64,000 nt of DNA from assembly GCA_963700285.1 (NCBI GenBank), contig CAVOXA010000010.1, positions 1,312,001-1,376,000 on the forward strand, in the 5' to 3' direction. The translations under genes were made by a program, and so were the position numbers. The notes below the pieces were generated by a model. It saw nothing but the letters and a program-made list of their open reading frames with translations. It was not told the origin of the DNA and did not search any database. Every line of letters starts with the position of its first letter. Position 1 is the stretch's first letter. The stretch is from an uncultured Chloroflexia bacterium. Its GTDB lineage: Bacteria > Chloroflexota > Anaerolineae > JAAYZQ01. Shown piece after piece: positions 12,402-28,061 of this stretch.

Positions 12402-12719
12402 CTAGCCTGTCGCGGCATGAGCAAAGGGTCTGACTTCCCGCTCGAGACGAGCACCCAGCAGGTCTTCGGCCACGTCCAGATCATAGTCCACCTGCAAGCC
12501 CAGCCAGAACTCAGGAGACATGTCAAAGAAACGCGCCAGCCTCAGCGCCGTGTCAGCCGTTATGCGGCGCTTGCCCAGCACAATCTCATTGATGCGTCGA
12601 GCTGGTACACCGATGTCAATTGCCAGTCGATTCTGGCTCAAGCCCATCGGCTTGAGGAATTCCTCGAGCAGTACCTCTCCTGGGTGGACAGGATTGAGTT
12701 TATCCTCCGCCATAGTCAC
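12402..12719 (-). CDS. higA: HigA family antitoxin
   Basis: PVHPGEVLLEEFLKPMGLSQNRLA...RINEIV...ITADTALRLARFF...FWLGLQ. Confidence 0.92.
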   Translation of the reverse strand: MTMAEDKLNPVHPGEVLLEEFLKPMGLSQNRLAIDIGVPARRINEIVLGKRRITADTALRLARFFDMSPEFWLGLQVDYDLDVAEDLLGARLEREVRPFAHAATG

Positions 12720-12725
12720 GCCTTT

Positions 12726-12978
12726 CTAGTGGTAGTCAACAATTTCTACCTCGAGCACATCGCCCTCCCACCACTCAAAGCAGATGCGCCATTGCTCGTT
12801 GATGCGAATGCTGTACTGTCCTTCCCGATCTCCTTTTAGCTTCTCCAGGCGATTTGCAGGTGGGACACGCAGATCGTTCAAGGTCACGGCACGATTGAGC
12901 ATCCGAAGCTTGCGCAAGGCGACTTGTTGGATGTCATGCGGCAGCTTGCGGGAACGCTGTCGCGAAAGATCTTCGGTT
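12726..12978 (-). pseudogene. higB: HigB (RelE/ParE family) toxin, N-terminally truncated
   Basis: ..RSRKLPHDIQQVALRKLRML..DLRVPPANRLEKLKGDREGQYSIRINEQWRICF..VEIVDYH; no in-frame start for the usual MIKSF-like N-terminus. Confidence 0.75.
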
Positions 12979-17472: not shown

Positions 17473-17751
17473 ATGCGCGCCGAGTACGATTTTCGCGGCG
17501 GTGTTCGTGGCAAACACCACGAGACCTACCGCCAGGGCCACGCCGTCAAGATCCAGACAGAGGACGGAACCGTTGATGTCCGCTGTTACACCCTCGAAGA
17601 CGGCGCGGTCCTATTGGAACCCGAGGTCCGCCAGTATTTCCCCGACTCTGAATCTGTGAACAAGGCTCTCCGCGCGCTAATCGACCTCGTGCCCGCCAAG
17701 CGCAAGGCCGTTGCCGAATCCCAGGATGATTATGAGATAAGCCAGGAATGA
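17473..17751 (+). CDS. Small antitoxin-like protein (BrnT-partner type)
   Basis: MRAEYDFRGGVRGK...VLLEPEVRQYFPDSESVNKALRAL, a pattern typical of small proteins downstream of brnT. Confidence 0.6.
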   Translation: MRAEYDFRGGVRGKHHETYRQGHAVKIQTEDGTVDVRCYTLEDGAVLLEPEVRQYFPDSESVNKALRALIDLVPAKRKAVAESQDDYEISQE

Positions 17752-18068: not shown

Positions 18069-18235
18069 AACTACCGGGTGAGTCTGTTGAATGTTGACCT
18101 TCCACCCTCACGGGGACAGCGCCGATGGCAAAGGACACGAAAGCTCACCTGGACGGTTCCGGAGCCATTGCCCAGGACCACAGCCCCTCTGGTTGCCGTC
18201 CGCAGCGTGTGCCGCGCACAAGGAGTACAAAGGCC

Positions 18236-18727
18236 ATGAGAGACGACTTTAACAAGCAAACCATAGAAACCCTGGCGGACAGAGCCGGCAACCGTTGCTC
18301 TAACCCAGAGTGCCGCCAGCCTACCAGCGGCCCGCGCAGCGAGTCGACCAAGACGGTCAACATCGGCGTCGCCGCCCACATCACGGCCGCTTCAGAGGGT
18401 GGCCCTCGCTACGACCCCACGCTCACCCCCGAGCAGCGCCGACACCCCGACAACGGCCTCTGGCTCTGCCAGAACTGCGCCAAGCTGGTGGACAACGACG
18501 CCCTGGCATATCCGGTGGACCTGCTGCAGGTATGGAAGCGCCAGGCCGAAGATACGGCCCGGCAGGAGCTCCAGCGGCGCGGGGCGCCCAAAGACCAGCC
18601 CGGCGCCTCTTCCCGGGTCGTTCACACCGGCAGCGGAGGACTGGCCCAGGACGGCAGCGTGGCCGCCGGCAAGGGTGGCGTCGCCGTAGACGGAGACGTG
18701 CACGGCGATATCCGCATCGGTGGGTGA
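18236..18727 (+). CDS. HNH endonuclease-like effector with C-terminal Gly-rich amyloid-like motif (alternative in-frame start 18125)
   Basis: AGNRCSNPEC...GVAAHITAASEGGPRY...NGLWLCQNCAKLVD; AGGAG before ATG 18236; ends GSGGLAQDGSVAAGKGGVAVDGDVHGDIRIGG*. Confidence 0.8.
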   Translation: MRDDFNKQTIETLADRAGNRCSNPECRQPTSGPRSESTKTVNIGVAAHITAASEGGPRYDPTLTPEQRRHPDNGLWLCQNCAKLVDNDALAYPVDLLQVWKRQAEDTARQELQRRGAPKDQPGASSRVVHTGSGGLAQDGSVAAGKGGVAVDGDVHGDIRIGG

Positions 18728-18742
18728 GGAAGGCAGCAGACC

Positions 18743-21549
18743 ATGACGGACGACCTCGCCAGACGCTTGGCCCAACTTCGAGACGCCTACGAGAGCGGGA
18801 TTCTGGACGACGACACCTACCAGGCGACCATGGCTGCCCTTAGTGCGGAGCCTGACGGGACAGCGATACTGGTTGGCTCTGGGGCCGTCGCCCAAAAGGA
18901 CAGCGTCGCGGCTGGTGCCGGCGGCGTGGCCGTAGGCCAAGACGTGGAAGGTCACATCATCTATGCCGAGCAGGGTGCGACCGTCGTCATCGGCGAGGCG
19001 CCCGGTAAAAATGACCGCCGTGGACCGCGAGTCGGCTCTGGGCCGCTACCTGCACCACGTCATCAGCCGCAACCGCTACTTGCAGTTCCAGGGCATCCGC
19101 TCCGGCGGGCGGCTGGTCCACATCGAGCTGGACCGCATCTACGTCACCCTGCGGGCCACCCGGCAGCGAGTGGTCGCAGGTGGAGGATGACTGGCTGGCT
19201 CACGAGGCGGCCCTGGCGCCCGGCGAGTGCCGCCGCTTGCGCAGGGCACGGCCGTCATGGCCTCCACCGAGACCGTGACCGTCAGCGTCAACGAGGCCCT
19301 GGCCGAGCACTCCCGCCTGGTCGTGCTGGGCGACCCTGGCAGCGGCAAGACGACGCTGCTGCGCTACCTGGCCTTGCTCTATGCCCGCGACCTGGCCGAG
19401 GGTTCGACATCTGGTCCGGGACAAGCTGGGGCTGGACGAGAGCGGCCGACTGCCCATTCTGCTGCCCCTGCGCCAGATCGGCGCCTATCTGCAGGCCCAC
19501 CGTGCTGTCGAGGACGGCACCGAGGGCCACGTCCTGCTGCTCGACTTTCTGTTGCGTACGTTGGCAAATGAGCGCATCACGCTTGCCGGCCGACTTTTTC
19601 GACGAGTGGCTGGCCAGGAGGCAAGGCTGTTATCCTGCTGGACGGGCTGGACGAGGTGGCCGATCCCAACCTGCGGCGGCGGGTCTCCGCCTGGTGGAGG
19701 CCTTCACCCGCGCCTATCCTGACTGCCGCTACGTCGTCACCAGCCGCATCGTGGGCTACACCGGCCCGGCCCGCCTGGGCTGAAGGCTACGCCACGACCA
19801 CCGTGCGCGATTTTACGCATGGCCGACGTAGAGCGCTTCCTGGCCAACTGGCACCGCCTGGTGGCCGTGGGCCAGATGGGACCGGGCGACAGCGCCGAAG
19901 CCTACGCCGCCGAGCAGACCCGACCAATTGCTGCGGGCCATTCGGGCCAACGAGCGCATCCGCGAGCTGGCCATCAATCCCCTGATGCTGACCGTCATCG
20001 CCATGGTCCACCGCGACCGGGTCAAGCTGCCCGACCGCCGGGCCGAGCTCTACGCCGAGGCGGTGGATGTGCTGCTGGGCAAGTGGGAGGAGGCCAAGGG
20101 CGTGCAGGAGGTGCCCATCCTGCGAGGGCCAACCCTTTGACACCGGCGACCGGCGGCTGATGCTGCAAAGCGTGGCCCTGCGCATGCACGAGGCGGAGCA
20201 GAAGGAGGTGGCGTCGGCGACCTGCGCCGCTGGCTGGGCGAGATGTTCCACGAGATCGTGGGCGACTGGCGAGCTGCGGAGCGGGCGGTCAACCGCTTCC
20301 TGCATGTCATCGAGGAACGGACCGGTCTGCTGGTGGCCCGTGGCGAGGGGGTCTATGCCTTCTCGCACCTGACCTTCCAGGAGTACCTGGCCGCCCTGGC
20401 CGTGGCCGCGCGGGACGACTACGTGGCCTACACCCTGACCCGCGTCGCCCGATCCCTGGTGGCGAGAGGTGATCCTGCTGGAAGCCGGCTATCTGAGCTA
20501 TGCAGAGCAAGGAGCGCACCACGCGCTTGATCCGGGCCATCGCCGAACTGGAAGAGGAGCCGGAGCCCTTCACAACCTGGTGCTGGCCGCCGAGTGCCTG
20601 CGCGACGTGGGCGTCGAACCGGGTGGAAGGAAGCCTTTGGAGACAGAGGTGCAACAACGGTTGCGGTCCGAGCTGGAGCGCGGTTCGCCCATCGTAGTTT
20701 CGGCGCGTCTCTGGCAGGTTCAGCCACGCGTTGCCTGGGTTCTGACGAGCGTGGCATCTGGCGGCCGATGGCCGCTGAGCCGCATTGAGCAGTGGCCGAT
20801 TCGGCGTCCGATCGCCGTTTTGGACGAGCCCTACGGCGAGCCGGAGTGGGTTGAGATTCCGGCCGGAGAGTTTTGGATGGGAGAGGAGAGAGACGATTCA
20901 CCGTGTTAACCTTGAGACTTTTCGCATCTCCCGCGTGCCCATCACCAACGCCCAGTACCGACTTTTTTGTGGAGGCAATGGGTCACGAATCACCATACCA
21001 TTGGGAGGAAGGCCGCCCGCCCAAAGGGTCGGAGAGCCATCCGGTGGTCAACGTCACCTGGCACGATGCCCTGGCCTATGCCGCTGGCTGAGCGAGGCGA
21101 CTGGCAAGCAATACTACCCTGCCCTCGGAGGCAGAATGGGAAAAGGCGGCGCGGGGGGACGCGGACAAACGGGTATTCCCCTGGGGCGATGCCTTCGAAA
21201 CGACTCGCTGTAACTGTAGGGAACTAGGATTGGGCAATACCACGCCGGTGGGCATCTTTCCCGAGGGGGCCAGTCCCTACGGTGTTTTGGACTTGAGCGG
21301 CAACGTCTGGGAGTGGACGCGGAGCTTATGGGGGTGACCGAGTACTCGGTTCATACCCGTATGATCCAGAGGGATGGGCGTGAGAACCTGCAGGCCGGAG
21401 ATGACGTCCTCCGGGTGGTGCGTGGCGGGTCGTTCGTCAGTGATCAGAGGGGCGTCCGCTGCGCCTACCGCTTCAGGCACGGCCCGGTCAACAGGCGCAA
21501 CTATGTCGGGTTTCGGGTGGTGGTGGCCCCCGTTACCTCTGGTCTCTGA
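18743..21549 (+). CDS. NACHT/STAND NTPase with C-terminal FGE-sulfatase (CLec-fold) domain, receptor 1; many frameshifts
   Basis: SHOCT-like N-terminus, amyloid-like motif, Walker [77 protein letters not shown]...GFRVVV. Confidence 0.85.
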
Positions 21550-21612
21550 CCCTCCGATCTCTGGATCTCTGATCCGCTGTCCTCTGAAATCGCGCCGAAG
21601 GCGCGATCGCCG
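21408..21612 (+). other. DGR variable region 1 + IMH-like tail + hairpin
   Basis: Aligns ungapped (offset 4298) to 25706-25910; mismatches only at codon positions 1-2; hairpin atcgcgcc-gaa-ggcgcgat 21589-21607. Confidence 0.85.
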
Positions 21613-21624
21613 TGGGCGAAATTC

Positions 21625-22055
21625 AGACCTGACAGGTCTCAGAGAGCCGGTTGGTAGACCAGCAGGCCTGCAAAAAGGAGAGCTGCTGGCCGGCGCAGGT
21701 TCTGCTCAAGACCTGTCAGGTCTGAGGGAGCTGGCTGGTAGAGTAGGGGTCCCGAAAAAGGAGAGCTGCTGGCCGGCGCAGGTTCTGCTCAAGACCTGTC
21801 AGGTCTGAGGGAGCTGGCTGGTAGAGTAGGGGTCCCGAAAAAGGAGAGCTGCTGGCCGGCGCAGGTTCTGCTCAAGACCTGTCAGGTCTGAGGGAGCTGG
21901 CTGGTAGAGTAGGGGTCCCGAAAAAGGAGAGCTGCTGGCCGGCGCAGGTTCTGCTCAAGACCTGTCAGGTCTGAGGGAGCTGGCTGGTAGAGTAGGGGTC
22001 CCGAAAAAGGAGATCTGCTGGTCGGCGCAGGCCCTGCTCAAGACCTGACAGGTCT
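21625..22055. repeat. 83-bp tandem array built on the REP palindrome AGACCTG(A/T)CAGGTCT
   Basis: Palindromes at 21625, 21709, 21792, 21875, 21958, 22041; intervening units near-identical (first one diverged). Confidence 0.92.
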
Positions 22056-22071
22056 GTGGAAGGACTCGAGA

Positions 22072-22665
22072 ATGGTTAAACCAGTGCCACTGCAATACGG
22101 CCAAACCTACCACATCTACAGCCGGGGCAACAACCGGGAAACGATCTTTGTCGAGGAGCGCAACTATCGGCACTTTCTGCGTCTCTACGCTCAGCACGTG
22201 CTGCCAATTGCCGACACTTACGCCTACTGCCTGCTGCCCAACCACTTTCACCTTCTCGTGTACATCAAGGAAATGGACCATCCATCAGCTCCAGATCCAA
22301 AGCGATCACCCAGCCAGTACTTCTCCAACCTCTTGAATGCCTATGCCCGCGCCTTCAACAGGGCCTACCGTCGCAGCGGATCCCTCTTCCAGCGCCCGTT
22401 TGGCCGGAAACTGGTGGCATCCGATGGCTACTTCACCTGGCTTATCGCTTACATCCACCAGAATCCCCAAATGCACGGCATTGTCGATGACTTTCGCGGC
22501 TGGGACTACTCTTCCTACCAGGCTCTGAAGTCGAGCCAGCCGACGCGCCTGAGGCGAGAAGAGGTTCAGGCCCTGTTTGGTGGTCCTCGCGCGTTTTCCA
22601 TCTTCCACGAGCAGCAGATCCCATTGGGCCGGGTAGCTCCTCTGGTAGCTGAGGATTTCGACTAG
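22072..22665 (+). mobile_element. REP-associated tyrosine transposase (RAYT, Y1/HUH)
   Basis: YHIYSRGNNR, YCLLPNHFHLL (HUH), GSLFQ, YIHQNP (catalytic Tyr), WDYSSY; flanked by REP palindromes at 22041 and 22670. Confidence 0.85.
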
Positions 22666-22697
22666 CCCCAGACCTGACAGGTCTTTGGAGGTGAACC

Positions 22698-25600
22698 ATG
22701 GACTTTACCTTTGACACCTGGAAAGAAGCAGCCGCAAACAGGCTGCAAAGCCTTGGCGACCGGCTGGAGCGTTTGAAAACACGGGAAGGGCCCTATCTCC
22801 TCTACGGCACCCTCTGCGGGCTGAGCCTCTGGCCGCTGGTGGAAGCGGCACAGTCCGGGCAGTTGCTGCCCGTGATCATGGCCCTGGGCGGCGTTGCCGG
22901 CGGTGTGGGGGGCAACCTCATCGCCGAGCAAATACAGCGCTGGCAGGACCAGGGCGCCGGGGTCAACGAGGAGACGGTCGCCGCCTGGGTGGTGGAAGGG
23001 GCTGCTGGCAACACCGACCTGCGCCAGGCGTTGGATTCGATCCTGGAGCGGCTCGAAGCGGTTCAGAACGCCGAAGCTGCCCTTGCAGTGGACGACCGGC
23101 AGTGGTTCGCGGGCACGCTTCGCGCGGAGATGGCGCAATTGGGCAACCTCCCCCGCTTTGAGGCGACGCTGATCGGCTCAGGGACCATCGCCCAGGACCA
23201 CAGCGTCGCAGCGGGTGCTGGCGGTGTGGCAGTGGGCCGGGATGTGGGCGGGGATGTCGTGATGCCCGGCGCGCACCAGGAAAAGCACTATCACCCTGCG
23301 CCCACGAGCGAGCAGCAGAGACAGCAAGAAAAAGAGGACCTGGACCGCTACCTGCGCAACCTGCAACGCCTTTGCAATGCCCTGCCCCTCGCCGCGATGG
23401 CTGAAGATGAAACAGTTCATCGCCGGGCCGAGGTCACGCTGAACCGGGTCTATATCTCCCTCAACACGACCGCCCGGGTGCCCTTGACGCAGGATGGCCA
23501 GGACCGCCACAGCCGCGAGCGTCCAGGATTTGGCGATAAAGAACGTCCGCTCACCGCGCTGGAGGCAACTGCCCGGGAAGCCCGCCTGGTCATCCTGGGC
23601 GACCCGGGATCCGGCAAATCGACCTTCGTCAACCACCTGGCCTACCTGCTCGCCGGGGCACGGCTGGGCCAGGGCGAGACCCCCGATGGCTGGCCCCACG
23701 GGCCATTGCTGCCCATCCGCATCCTGCTGCGCGAGTTGGCGGCCGTGCTGCCTGGGGATCAAGATCTCCAGGGCCTGCCTGCCGAAAAGCGGGCCGTCAG
23801 ACTCGTGGACGAGATCTGGAGCCACCTGCGACAGGAAACGGCGAGCACCTACCGGGCCGCGGGCGTGCACAGGATCCTGGAGCGAGAGGTAGACCGCTGC
23901 CAGGCCCTGGTCATTTTCGACGGATTGGATGAGGTGGCTCCGGAACGCCGCGGGATGGTCAGGGATGCGGTGGATGCATTTGGCCAGTTGTGTGGCGAGA
24001 ACCGGGTGTTGGTCACCTGCCGCGTGCGCTCGTACAGCAAGGGCGTTTCTCTCGGCTCCTTTGCCAGTGTCACCCTGGCCCCTTTCGAAGGCGACCAGAT
24101 CGAGGAATTTGTGACACGTTGGTATCAGGCTTTGGCAGATCTGGGCACCATCAAAAGCCAGGAGGCTGAAAAGCGGGCCAAGAACCTCCATGAGGCTGTC
24201 CAGCCCATGCAGGAGCTGGCACGCAATCCGCTGCTCCTGACGACGATGGCCGTGGTGCACACCGCCCAGGTGGAGCTGCCGCGCGAACGGGCCCGGCTGT
24301 ACCAGCGCTGCGTGGATGTGTTGCTCCGGCGCTGGCACAAACACAAGGTTGGAGAAGCACCGCTACTGGATCGACTGGGTGTGAGCGAAGCCGAGCTGCT
24401 GGCTGCTCTACGAGAGGTAGCCTACGAGGCTCATCATAGAGGTGGTACAGAAGAGGAAGGAGACCTGCCCCGCAGCTTGGTGCTCAAGATCATGGCCGGG
24501 CACCTGTCTGGGCACTATGGCCGTGCCGAACAGTTTCTGGAGTACGTTGACGCCCGGGCCGGCCTGCTCATCGGCCGGGGCGGGGCGGAGGAGCCGGTCT
24601 ACAGCTTCCCACACCGGACATTCCAGGAATACCTGGCCGGCTGCCACCTGGCGCTGGGCGGCCGGGATTTTGGCCGCCGCCTGCGGCGCCTGTTGGCTGA
24701 AGGCGATCGCTGGGCGCTGGCCTCTCAACTTGGCGCGGAACACCTTCTGTACAACGTCGGCGACGTCACACGCGTCCTGGATGCGAGCTACACCCTCTGT
24801 CCTGTTGCGGAGCCAGACCTGGAGGAAGCCTGGCGAGGGGTAGCTTGGGCCGGGCAGTTTGCCACGGAGGTGGGCCAGCGAAGGGTCGAGCAGGACGAGG
24901 ATGCGCCAGACGGCGGCGCGGCCTTTCTGCGCCGTCTGGTACCCCGGCTCGTCACGATTCTGGCCCAGGAGAAGCTTGGGCCAGTAGAGCGTGCCGCCGC
25001 CGGGCGCGCGCTGGGGGTCTTGGGTGACCCGCGGCCAGGCTTCGGTGTGGATCCCGAGTCTGGGCTTCCCGATCTTGCCTGGTGTGCGGTGCCTGCCGGT
25101 CCTTTCCCCATGGGCAGCGACGACGAGGATGAACTCGCTTTCGACAACGAGAAACCACAGCATGAGGCGGTGATAGCTTACGACTACCGCATTGCCCAGT
25201 ACCCGCTGACCAACCTCCAGTACGCCGCTTTTGTCAGCGCTCAGGGCTATCAAGAACGCGGCTACTGGACCGGGGCCGGCTGGAAATGGAAAGGCGACAA
25301 GACGGATCCACGCACCTTTGGCGGCTCTTTCGACCTGCCCAACCATCCTGTTGTGGGGCTGAGCTGGTATGAGGCTGTGGCCTTCTGCCGCTGGCTCACA
25401 GAAAAGCTGCGTGAGACGGGTGGCATTACTCAGAATGATGAGATCCGGCTGCCCACGGAGGCCGAATGGGAGAAAGCGGCGCGGGGAACCGGCGGGCAGA
25501 CCTACCCCTGGGGTGACGAGTTTGACCCGGCTCGCTGCAACATGTACGACACAGGGATTGGCAACACCAGCGCGGTAGGCGCCTTTCCTGGTAGTGCGTC

Positions 25601-25847
25601 CCCCTATGGCCTTCTGGACACGAGCGGGAACGTGTGGGAGTGGTGCGGCACCAAATGGTGCGAAAGTTATGAGGAGGAGCCTGACGAGTCTCTGGAAGGG
25701 GATGCCCTCCGGGTGGTGCGTGGCGGGTCGTTCGGCCTTAGTCAGAGGCTCGTCCGCTGCGCCTGCCGCTACTGGTACGGCCCGGACGGCTGGGACTACT
25801 ATGTCGGGTTTCGGGTGGTGGTGGCCCCCGTTACCTCTGGTCTCTGA
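22698..25847 (+). CDS. NACHT/STAND NTPase with C-terminal FGE-sulfatase (CLec-fold) domain, receptor 2 (intact, 1049 aa)
   Basis: N-terminal helical domain, amyloid-like motif, [83 protein letters not shown]. Confidence 0.93.
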   Translation: MDFTFDTWKEAAANRLQSLGDRLERLKTREGPYLLYGTLCGLSLWPLVEAAQSGQLLPVIMALGGVAGGVGGNLIAEQIQRWQDQGAGVNEETVAAWVVEGAAGNTDLRQALDSILERLEAVQNAEAALAVDDRQWFAGTLRAEMAQLGNLPRFEATLIGSGTIAQDHSVAAGAGGVAVGRDVGGDVVMPGAHQEKHYHPAPTSEQQRQQEKEDLDRYLRNLQRLCNALPLAAMAEDETVHRRAEVTLNRVYISLNTTARVPLTQDGQDRHSRERPGFGDKERPLTALEATAREARLVILGDPGSGKSTFVNHLAYLLAGARLGQGETPDGWPHGPLLPIRILLRELAAVLPGDQDLQGLPAEKRAVRLVDEIWSHLRQETASTYRAAGVHRILEREVDRCQALVIFDGLDEVAPERRGMVRDAVDAFGQLCGENRVLVTCRVRSYSKGVSLGSFASVTLAPFEGDQIEEFVTRWYQALADLGTIKSQEAEKRAKNLHEAVQPMQELARNPLLLTTMAVVHTAQVELPRERARLYQRCVDVLLRRWHKHKVGEAPLLDRLGVSEAELLAALREVAYEAHHRGGTEEEGDLPRSLVLKIMAGHLSGHYGRAEQFLEYVDARAGLLIGRGGAEEPVYSFPHRTFQEYLAGCHLALGGRDFGRRLRRLLAEGDRWALASQLGAEHLLYNVGDVTRVLDASYTLCPVAEPDLEEAWRGVAWAGQFATEVGQRRVEQDEDAPDGGAAFLRRLVPRLVTILAQEKLGPVERAAAGRALGVLGDPRPGFGVDPESGLPDLAWCAVPAGPFPMGSDDEDELAFDNEKPQHEAVIAYDYRIAQYPLTNLQYAAFVSAQGYQERGYWTGAGWKWKGDKTDPRTFGGSFDLPNHPVVGLSWYEAVAFCRWLTEKLRETGGITQNDEIRLPTEAEWEKAARGTGGQTYPWGDEFDPARCNMYDTGIGNTSAVGAFPGSASPYGLLDTSGNVWEWCGTKWCESYEEEPDESLEGDALRVVRGGSFGLSQRLVRCACRYWYGPDGWDYYVGFRVVVAPVTSGL

Positions 25848-26075: not shown

Positions 26076-28061
26076 ACGGCGCTGAAGCGCCGACTACGAA
26101 CGGGCTTGAGCCAGACCAGGTCCCGTTCGTAGTGCGCGTTTCAACGCGCTATCTGAGCCGCGGGTCCAGTTTTCAACCAGAACGGCGCTGAAGCGCCGAC
26201 TACGAACGGGCTTGAGCCAGACCAGGTCCCGTTCGTAGTGCGCGTTTCAACGCGCTATCTGAGCCGCGAGTCCAGTTTTCAACCAGAACGGCGCTGAAGC
26301 GCCGACTACGAACGGGCATGAGCCAGACCAGGTCCCGTTCGTAGTGCGCGTTTCAACGCGCTATCTGAGCCGCGGGTCCAGTTTTCAACCAGAACGGCGC
26401 TGAAGCGCCGACTACGAACGGGCATGAGCCAGACCAGGTCCCGTTCGTAGTGCGCGTTTCAACGCGCTATCTGAGCCGCGGGTCCAGTTTTCAACCAGAA
26501 CGGCGCTGAAGCGCCGACTACGAACGGGCTTGAGCCAGACCAGGTCCCGTTCGTAGTGCGCGTTTCAACGCGCTATCTGAGCCGCGGGTCCAGTTTTCAA
26601 CCAGAACGGCGCTGAAGCGCCGACTACGAACGGGCTTGAGCCAGACCAGGTCCCGTTCGTAGTGCGCGTTTCAACGCGCTATCTGAGCCGCGGGTCCAGT
26701 TTTCAACCAGAACGGCGCTGAAGCGCCGACTACGAACGGGCTTGAGCCAGACCAGGTCCCGTTCGTAGTGCGCGTTTCAACGCGCTATCTGAGCCGCGGG
26801 TCCAGTCTTCAACCAGAACGGCGCTGAAGCGCCGACTACGAACGGGCTTGAGCCAGACCAGGTCCCGTTCGTAGTGCGCGTTTCAACGCGCTATCTGAGC
26901 CGCGGGTCCGGTTTTCAACCAGAACGGCGCTGAAGCGCCGACTATGAACGGGCATGAGCCAGACCAGGTCCCGTTCGTAGTGCGCGTTTCAACGCGCTAT
27001 CTGAGCCGCGGGTCCAGTTTTCAACCAGAACGGCGCTGAAGCGCCGACTACGAACGGGTTTGAGCCAGACCAGGTCCCGTTCGTAGTGCGCGTTTCAACG
27101 CGCTATCTGAGCCGCGGGTCCAGTTTTCAACCAGAACGGCGCTGAAGCGCCGACTACGAACGGGCATGAGCCAGACCAGGTCCCGTTCGTAGTGCGCGTT
27201 TCAACGCGCTATCTGAGCCGCGGGTCCAGTTTTCAACCAGAACGGCGCTGAAGCGCCGACTACGAACGGGCATGAGCCAGACCAGGTCCCGTTCGTAGTG
27301 CGCGTTTCAACGCGCTATCTGAGCCGCGAGTCCAGTTTTCAACCAGAACGGCGCTGAAGCGCCGACTACGAACGGGCATGAGCCAGACCAGGTCCCGTTC
27401 GTAGTGCGCGTTTCAACGCGCTATCTGAGCCGCGAGTCCAGTTTTCAACCAGAACGGCGCTGAAGCGCCGACTACGAACGGGCATGAGCCAGACCAGGTC
27501 CCGTTCGTAGTGCGCGTTTCAACGCGCTATCTGAGCCGCGGGTCCAGTTTTCAACCAGAACGGCGCTGAAGCGCCGACTACGAACGGGCTTGAGCCAGAC
27601 CAGGTCCCGTTCGTAGTGCGCGTTTCAACGCGCTATCTGAGCCGCGGGTCCAGTTTTCAACCAGAACGGCGCTGAAGCGCCGACTACGAACGGGTTTGAG
27701 CCAGACCAGGTCCCGTTCGTAGTGCGCGTTTCAACGCGCTATCTGAGCCGCGAGTCCAGTTTTCAACCAGAACGGCGCTGAAGCGCCGACTACGAACGGG
27801 CATGAGCCAGACCAGGTCCCGTTCGTAGTGCGCGTTTCAACGCGCTATCTGAGCCGCGGGTCCAGTTTTCAACCAGAACGGCGCTGAAGCGCCGACTACG
27901 AACGGGCATGAGCCAGACCAGGTCCCGTTCGTAGTGCGCGTTTCAACGCGCTATCTGAGCCGCGGGTCCAGTTTTCAACCAGAACGGCGCTGAAGCGCCG
28001 ACTACGAACGGGCATGAGCCAGACCAGGTCCCGTTCGTAGTGCGCGTTTCAACGCGCTATC
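26076..28061. repeat. 106-bp tandem array (18 full copies + partial 19th) of GTAG-type REP doublets (REPIN/BIME-like)
   Basis: Unit acggcgctgaagcgccgactacgaacggg(c/t)(t/a)tgagccagaccaggtcccgttcgtagtgcgcgtttcaacgcgctatctgagccgcg(g/a)gtccagttttcaaccaga; starts 26076, 26182 ... 27984; no ORFs in the track across 26086-28001. Confidence 0.95.

Follow-up and report, generated by a model that had tools for sequence, protein, structure and literature searches.

How might a bacterial receptor that is diversified by a diversity-generating retroelement (DGR) pass its signal to an effector encoded by a separate gene? The question is raised by a locus in a stretch of 64,000 nucleotides from an uncultured Chloroflexia bacterium (contig CAVOXA010000010.1, positions 1,312,001 to 1,376,000), which is called the window below. 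In this locus, a gene for a small HNH-fold protein is followed by two genes for NACHT receptors with C-type-lectin ends, and all three proteins carry the same short motif. We lean toward the reading that this motif, which we assign to the family BASS6, is a tag that passes the signal from the two DGR-diversified receptors to the separate HNH effector by amyloid templating. The genes and motif copies concerned are as follows.

18236..18727 (+): effector gene, 163 amino acids, with the HNH fold at about residues 1-110, a variable linker and a C-terminal BASS6 motif
18629..18724 (+): effector-side copy of the BASS6 motif, running up to the stop codon
18743..21549 (+): receptor 1, with a SHOCT-like helix, BASS6, NACHT and FGS/C-type-lectin domains; about 26 single-base insertions or deletions in the assembly
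18875..18961 (+): BASS6 motif, receptor-1 copy, residues 45-73 (translation and pairwise alignment)
22698..25847 (+): receptor 2, intact, 1049 amino acids, with a helical domain of about 155 amino acids, BASS6, NACHT and FGS/C-type-lectin domains (Pfam)
23175..23261 (+): BASS6 motif, receptor-2 copy, residues 160-188 (translation and pairwise alignment)

The shared motif and the HNH effector

The original prediction for this DNA had placed related peptides at 18629, 18875 and 23175, and all three translate at these starts. In pairwise comparisons, 19 to 20 of 31 residues and 59 to 70% of the bases were identical, and 10 to 13 of the identical residues per pair (about half) were encoded by different codons, in agreement with the predicted selection on the peptide. 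The local alignment scores were 85 and 94, and none of 5000 composition-preserving shuffles reached them (maxima, 61 and 59). A six-frame pattern scan and two profile searches found only these three full copies in the 7.05-Mb genome. The effector gene has a ribosome-binding site at about 18220, and 15 nt separate its stop codon from the receptor-1 ATG (18743), as predicted. With one copy at the effector C-terminus and another before the NACHT domain of the adjacent, collinear gene, the locus has the expected two-component amyloid-signaling layout, which is already published. Both receptor copies precede NACHT domains, as predicted, but they do not stand at the very N-terminus, since helical parts come before them.

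Receptor 1 continues the reading frame of the HNH gene after a single TGA and five codons (18725-18745), and the same holds in a relative of the same genus (G263). Stop-codon readthrough was not supported: by inspection, 5 of 10 close pairs were in frame, two of them orthologues, which is close to the expected one in three and no enrichment, and a ribosome-binding site overlaps the HNH stop.

The published BASS6 set (C09 in the PMC8086366 supplement) holds entries of the same pattern (C09_s080, C09_s089, and C09_s090). The first of these is a Chloroflexi protein, to which the receptor-2 copy is identical at 20 of 31 positions, a count made by eye and not a profile score. By this comparison, the motif belongs to BASS6, a family already known. 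Of the earlier label "BASS/RHIM-like", the BASS part stands. Membership in RHIM or BASS3 was rejected: the motif resembles RHIM, PP and BASS3 as a short Gly- and Val-rich segment in a signaling position, but their G-hydrophobic-Q-hydrophobic-G core (10.1101/2020.01.06.895854) is absent in three of three copies. Pfam and NCBIfam gave no match on the motif, and PDB sequence searches with the motif and Bell-like profiles (see below) returned nothing convincing. In AlphaFold models, the motif had a predicted local distance difference test score (pLDDT) below 50 and is predicted to be unstructured in the monomer, as expected for a templated segment. No longer motif proteins were found at E 0.001 among 100 candidates; the query is short and of low complexity, and the search hence weak.

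The effector is assigned by homology to the Cap5/SPARHA type of HNH-fold effectors. Its residues 1-110 matched the CBASS endonuclease and SAVED-HNH models of PADLOC (best E 5e-19), and the protein also matched PDC-M68A (E 3e-27) and solved Cap5-like structures (PDB 9om4, E 1e-9; 7rwm, E 5e-5); a Pfam HNH_2 match was below cut-off. The profile matches stop at about residue 113, and no SAVED part was found in the 163 residues, so the SAVED/CD-NTase signature of CBASS Cap5 is missing. Cleavage by Cap5 takes an HNH tetramer and the residues His56, His91, and Asp95 (PMC12141522), and in SPARHA a related HNH becomes active on filaments (PMC12738770). His56 corresponds to His48 of the effector, and the metal ligand Asp95 is kept as Asp86. 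The general-base histidine and zinc ligands are present (Cys21, Cys26, His48, Asn73, Cys78, and Cys81), and His48, Asn73, Asp86 and the four cysteines were invariant among 13 close homologues. Nuclease activity is predicted only; DNA cutting is unproven because one metal-binding histidine is absent. The AlphaFold model from the HNH alignment was poor (mean pLDDT, 46) and was set aside.

The BASS6 tail was kept in 11 database homologues (P0002-P0012), which are proteins without genomic context. Among 13 homologues, column conservation was 0.86 for the motif, 0.87 for the HNH domain and 0.50 for the linker, and the effector motif differed from its G263 orthologue by 11 synonymous and 2 amino-acid-changing codon differences. 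Locus L146 encodes an HNH protein 90% identical to the window effector. No HNH-BASS6 locus beyond the same-genus one was found among 36 metagenome loci, the best 80 of 356 genome loci and 6 viral loci.

In other close HNH homologues, BASS6 was replaced by an EAD-like helical domain or by one of three other beta-rich C-terminal tails (P0013-P0016, P0019-P0023, and P0027). One of these tails was also found on caspases, and none of its marker strings occurred in the examined part of the BASS data set (PMC8086366 supplement). The alternative tails are possible unlisted BASS families. In locus L147 (4042-5699), the EAD-like domain of the HNH homologue was matched in the neighboring upstream ATPase (score, 226); this common helical domain of about 90 residues had no Pfam match, and locus L068 has the same arrangement. 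The HNH family was also fused to a P-loop NTPase in 14 of 100 loci examined (the best 20 of 36 metagenome loci and the best 80 of 356 genome-scan loci). Because of the tail swaps, the matched domain in L147 and the NTPase fusions, the HNH protein behaves as an effector that needs an NTPase scaffold and can be wired to it in several ways.

Occurrence and pairing across the class

The motif profile matched 33 of 401 genomes of the class and, in a phylum-wide sample, 4 of 401 genomes, all of the same class (window genome counted in both). For the pairing count, the DNA around the class-wide matches was analyzed with local profiles; the window genome (G000) and the frameshifted G263 were left out, and a few weaker matches below the classification threshold were uncounted. 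The loci of 31 other genomes contained 52 copies, with 22 before an NTPase domain, 22 on the effector side (at most 45 residues from the end of a non-NTPase protein) and 8 elsewhere. A total of 44 of 52 copies were thus at an effector C-terminus or before an NTPase domain, which bears out the effector/NLR pairing bias of the original prediction; the opposing case of a motif without such bias fails. The FGS lectin domain was also present on 19 of the 22 pre-NTPase carriers. The effector-side carriers were 12 Bell-like bundles, 5 caspases, 2 contig-cut fragments and 3 others. Among the eight other placements were STAND-TPR, TPR and pentapeptide proteins, and a caspase and a Bell-like protein with EAD7 after the motif.

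An NTPase gene was found within 400 bp of 16 of the 22 effector-side carriers. It had a strong copy of the motif in 10 cases and a weak copy in 3, and the remaining 3 had a locus-specific tag by pairwise alignment only, with no null run. We compared the copies of 13 pairs, including one pair 1.2 kb apart and the window's own. The mean score was 89.6 with the own partner versus 74.1 with other partners, a co-variation that 0 of 20000 permutations reached.

The Bell-like carriers are helical bundles of about 105 residues with a hydrophobic first helix, unnamed by any library searched. A fold search with an AlphaFold model, in which only the bundle was confident, gave no Z above 5.8. The labels "Bell-like" and "EAD-like" are our own, chosen from architecture and general descriptions, not library matches. 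The published BASS6 set is defined as Bell-side (PMC8086366).

Effectors with two consecutive tags were observed in three loci: BASS6 plus another short tag, which has its match in the neighboring NACHT protein (L078:2480-6031), and BASS6 with EAD7 (L127:4986-6374 and L135:2387-3445). In L238-L240, a Bell-like BASS6 protein is followed by a non-NACHT STAND ATPase whose N-terminus has only the last part of the motif.

Receptors, DGR marks and surroundings

The DGR-diversified NACHT-lectin receptors, the frameshifts in receptor 1 and the Cap5-type HNH fold minus one metal ligand all go beyond the original prediction. Both receptors are assigned, from their sequences, to the NACHT-FGS (C-type-lectin) type with DGR variable regions as 3' ends. 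Receptor 2 matched Pfam NACHT (E 1e-9) and FGE-sulfatase (E 3e-54), and receptor 1 was 74% identical to an intact homologue in another genome (G355) over 848 aligned residues, with 2 stops. Public sequencing runs contained relatives of the HNH gene and receptor 2 and no near-identical receptor 1, and no RNA run was listed. The further features of the locus are as follows.

18155..18184 (+): half-copy, with no more than the first pseudo-repeat of the motif, in front of the HNH start; a remnant or a short upstream open reading frame
21408..21532 (+): DGR variable region of receptor 1, then about 105 nt common to receptor 2
21625..22056 (+): 83-bp tandem array, 5.2 copies, adjoining the transposase
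22072..22665 (+): REP-associated tyrosine transposase-like gene (NF047646, E 3e-15, below cut-off; synteny)
25706..25830 (+): DGR variable region of receptor 2, with 23 of 25 differences from the G263 template at adenines

Receptor 1 differs from the G263 template repeat at 21 positions of its variable region, and 19 of these are template adenines. The two receptors have a common 232-nt 3' end, and in their last 47 codons all 18 of 18 differences were at codon position 1 or 2. The orthologous G263 locus contains the same HNH-BASS6 gene, with an avd-template-reverse transcriptase cassette between its two receptors. In the window, this cassette position is occupied by the 83-bp array and the transposase-like gene (21625-22665). 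No matching template and reverse transcriptase were found in the locus, and no full template elsewhere in the genome (89% complete), where the best template-like match was 59 nt long and had most of its mismatches at adenines (11 of 16 and 14 of 19). Because no matching template was found, the receptors look frozen in the window genome. Three further reverse transcriptase loci beside FGS-domain genes (C1:1725000-1728300, C10:224400-228600, and C14:610000-614800) are more DGRs of this genome. Adenine-specific template/target pairs were also found in five further motif-bearing loci (L085, L123, L124, L130, and L134), where the target frame has a strong copy of the motif in three, a weak copy in one, and in one the copy is out of frame.

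Between the window genome and G263, the DNA similarity of both receptors runs through the motif and ends just behind it, so the NACHT-lectin bodies were exchanged under a constant header. The N-terminal helical domain of receptor 2 (22698-23170) contains a long run of hydrophobic residues and belongs to no named family, and Atlas leads for this N-terminus were all below 0.9. This domain is a candidate membrane-targeting effector or NACHT N-terminal helical domain. A half-copy of the motif similar to that of the window is present in G263 in another frame, and the unit of the 83-bp array resembles the sequence just behind receptor 1 of G263.

A 106-bp tandem array (26076-28061; 18.7 copies, 98% identity) lies right behind receptor 2 and looks REP-type; further contigs of this genome have related repeats. 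Upstream of the locus, we take a 92-amino-acid open reading frame without library match (17473-17751) to be antitoxin-like and, further upstream, 12402-12917 to be presumably a HigBA-like toxin-antitoxin pair. No Rfam match at E 0.1 and no promoter-like site were found.

Proposed signaling by amyloid templating: mechanism, alternatives and meaning

In the proposed mechanism, the DGR-hypermutated lectin tip would sense an invader molecule as its ligand, as was likewise inferred for related receptors (Kaur et al. 2021; Dore et al. 2024). The NACHT domains may then oligomerize. Oligomerization is established for STAND NTPases. Once side by side, the BASS6 segments would nucleate a cross-beta structure, onto which the HNH protein would be drawn by its free C-terminal tail to give a co-assembled amyloid. 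The stacking would cluster the HNH domains and may lead to DNA damage and abortive infection as a defense, with catalysis being the uncertain part. One effector would serve both receptors, because the genome has no other effector-side carrier.

Several observations weigh against this mechanism. The experiments in the BASS literature examined cover BASS1, BASS3, and BASS11, and none concerns BASS6. BASS motifs are described as enriched in Q/N/G/V/I (10.1101/2020.01.06.895854), which is more polar than this motif set. The genomic context of HNH-BASS6 comes from two genomes of one genus only, and 6 of the 22 effector-side carriers had no adjacent NTPase in the stretch fetched. The effector copy of the window scored higher with the receptors of two other genomes than with receptor 1 (rank 3 of 13), the motif hidden Markov model was built from the same loci, related genomes among them do not count as independent, and the similarity within loci is inflated by common descent and local duplication. 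In the HNH domain, the equivalent of Cap5 His91 is Ala82, and this position was Ala, Gly, or Ser in 114 of 114 readable homologues (of 120). In both assemblies (window genome and G263), receptor 1 is interrupted. In the window genome, it has approximately 26 indels but only 2 stops, 7 of 31 MttB-like loci also switch frame, and sequencing error is the likelier cause of the frameshifts.

The tag could instead be a homotypic adaptor with a finite beta-roll or beta-solenoid fold, such as a YadA-head-like trimer, which forms with the receptor ring and recruits a fixed number of effectors without self-propagating amyloid. Its composition (24% Gly, 19% Ala, 5% Gln, and 3% Asn) would suit such a fold, as would weak Pfam YadA_head matches of five variants from relatives (E 0.0008-0.03, below cut-off), found in at least 4 of the 31 proteins scanned. 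The tag also takes the place that EAD-like domains have elsewhere, and two proteins carry it in a row with EAD7. We nevertheless regard a finite adaptor as unlikely. Fibril formation and cross-seeding were demonstrated for BASS1, BASS3, and BASS11 (10.1101/2020.01.06.895854; 10.1101/2024.11.07.622273), that is, for all BASS families tested so far, and the motif is predicted to be unstructured in the monomer, with no solved structure matching its profile. A motif that serves merely as a flexible Gly/Ala linker, or as a patch of DNA homology for the exchange of receptor bodies, with no protein-protein role, is far less probable still. It would explain why the bodies are swapped where the similarity between the window genome and G263 ends; however, the peptide is conserved while its codons diverged, neighbors have matching variants, and on effectors the motif is a free C-terminal tail that links nothing.

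A different alternative keeps amyloid templating but makes the HNH domain non-cutting, either as a DNA-binding or zinc-finger adaptor or as a decoy that damps the receptors, and leaves killing to the helical domain of receptor 2. The family-wide lack of the His91 equivalent speaks for it, and the hydrophobic helical domain right before the receptor-2 motif repeats the order of Bell-motif proteins. This match between receptor 2 and the Bell-like profile covers the last helix and the motif only, however, and the invariant His48, Asn73, Asp86 and four cysteines, an Asp-x-Asp pair that comes next in most of the family and may provide other metal ligands and the effector position of the domain in fused NTPases all favor a cutting enzyme. 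We therefore consider a non-cutting HNH improbable and retain templated activation of a predicted nuclease.

The closest known systems are the Bell/NLR amyloid-signaling pairs of Dyrka et al. (10.1101/2020.01.06.895854; data set PMC8086366), to which BASS6 belongs. They have the same motif sequence and the same layout of an effector C-terminal and a pre-NACHT copy in closely spaced collinear genes, and in relatives of the window the motif likewise occurs on Bell-like and caspase proteins. Their effectors are Bell, hydrolase, TIR2, CHAT, or guanylate cyclase proteins and their sensors TPR or WD repeats, whereas here an HNH protein is the effector and a DGR-diversified lectin the sensor, the motif has an internal position in the receptors and one effector is combined with two receptors. 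Bab/Agp, a BASS11 system for which abortive-infection logic was shown by experiment (10.1101/2024.11.07.622273), is also an adjacent pair with a common amyloid motif, but it uses another motif family, a TPR-GreA/B-PIN activator and a membrane-targeting effector. The STAND NTPase-FGS/EAD systems (Kaur et al. 2021; PMC8195603) and the clade-5D DGR NACHT-CLec targets (Dore et al. 2024; PMC10907252) share NACHT-FGS receptors, two targets per DGR locus and adaptor-coupled separate effectors; their adaptor is a helical EAD and not a BASS amyloid-type motif. The word "amyloid" occurs once in the main text of each of these two papers, in the latter only in a reference title, and the latter describes uncharacterized N-terminal extensions on DGR targets. 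Cap5 and SPARHA have a homologous HNH that is activated by oligomerization or filament formation (PMC12141522; PMC12738770), as is proposed here. In contrast to them, the window effector has no SAVED or APAZ and has Ala for His91, and control by a templated tail would replace the nucleotide or guide.

The accessible text of the BASS preprint (10.1101/2020.01.06.895854) mentions no HNH and no sulfatase, while its supplementary tables could list such pairs. Open full-text searches, with subscription journals outside their scope, found no literature in which BASS motifs are connected with HNH effectors or with the targets of DGRs. Neither the motif nor its arrangement in two genes is new; what is new is the set of partners that carry it, namely, DGR-diversified lectin NLRs and an oligomer-activated HNH fold.

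The locus joins BASS amyloid signaling, DGR-diversified NACHT-lectin receptors and oligomer-activated HNH effectors, which stand apart in the cited literature, and it names an output route for DGR receptors with uncharacterized N-terminal extensions. The 163-residue protein offers a direct test of amyloid-driven activation of an enzyme fold and not a pore, and a test case for BASS6. More tentatively, BASS6 could be a plug-and-play amyloid bus in this Chloroflexota class, in which swapped DGR lectin receptors feed one fibril that fires any tagged effector (a membrane bundle, a caspase or, at this locus, an atypical HNH DNase whose metal site departs from the canonical one), and in which the alternative HNH tails are unlisted BASS families; this wider proposal is possible, and we hold it with less confidence than the templating at this locus. 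If true, an adaptive-like bacterial receptor repertoire would be wired to an amyloid-activated nuclease.

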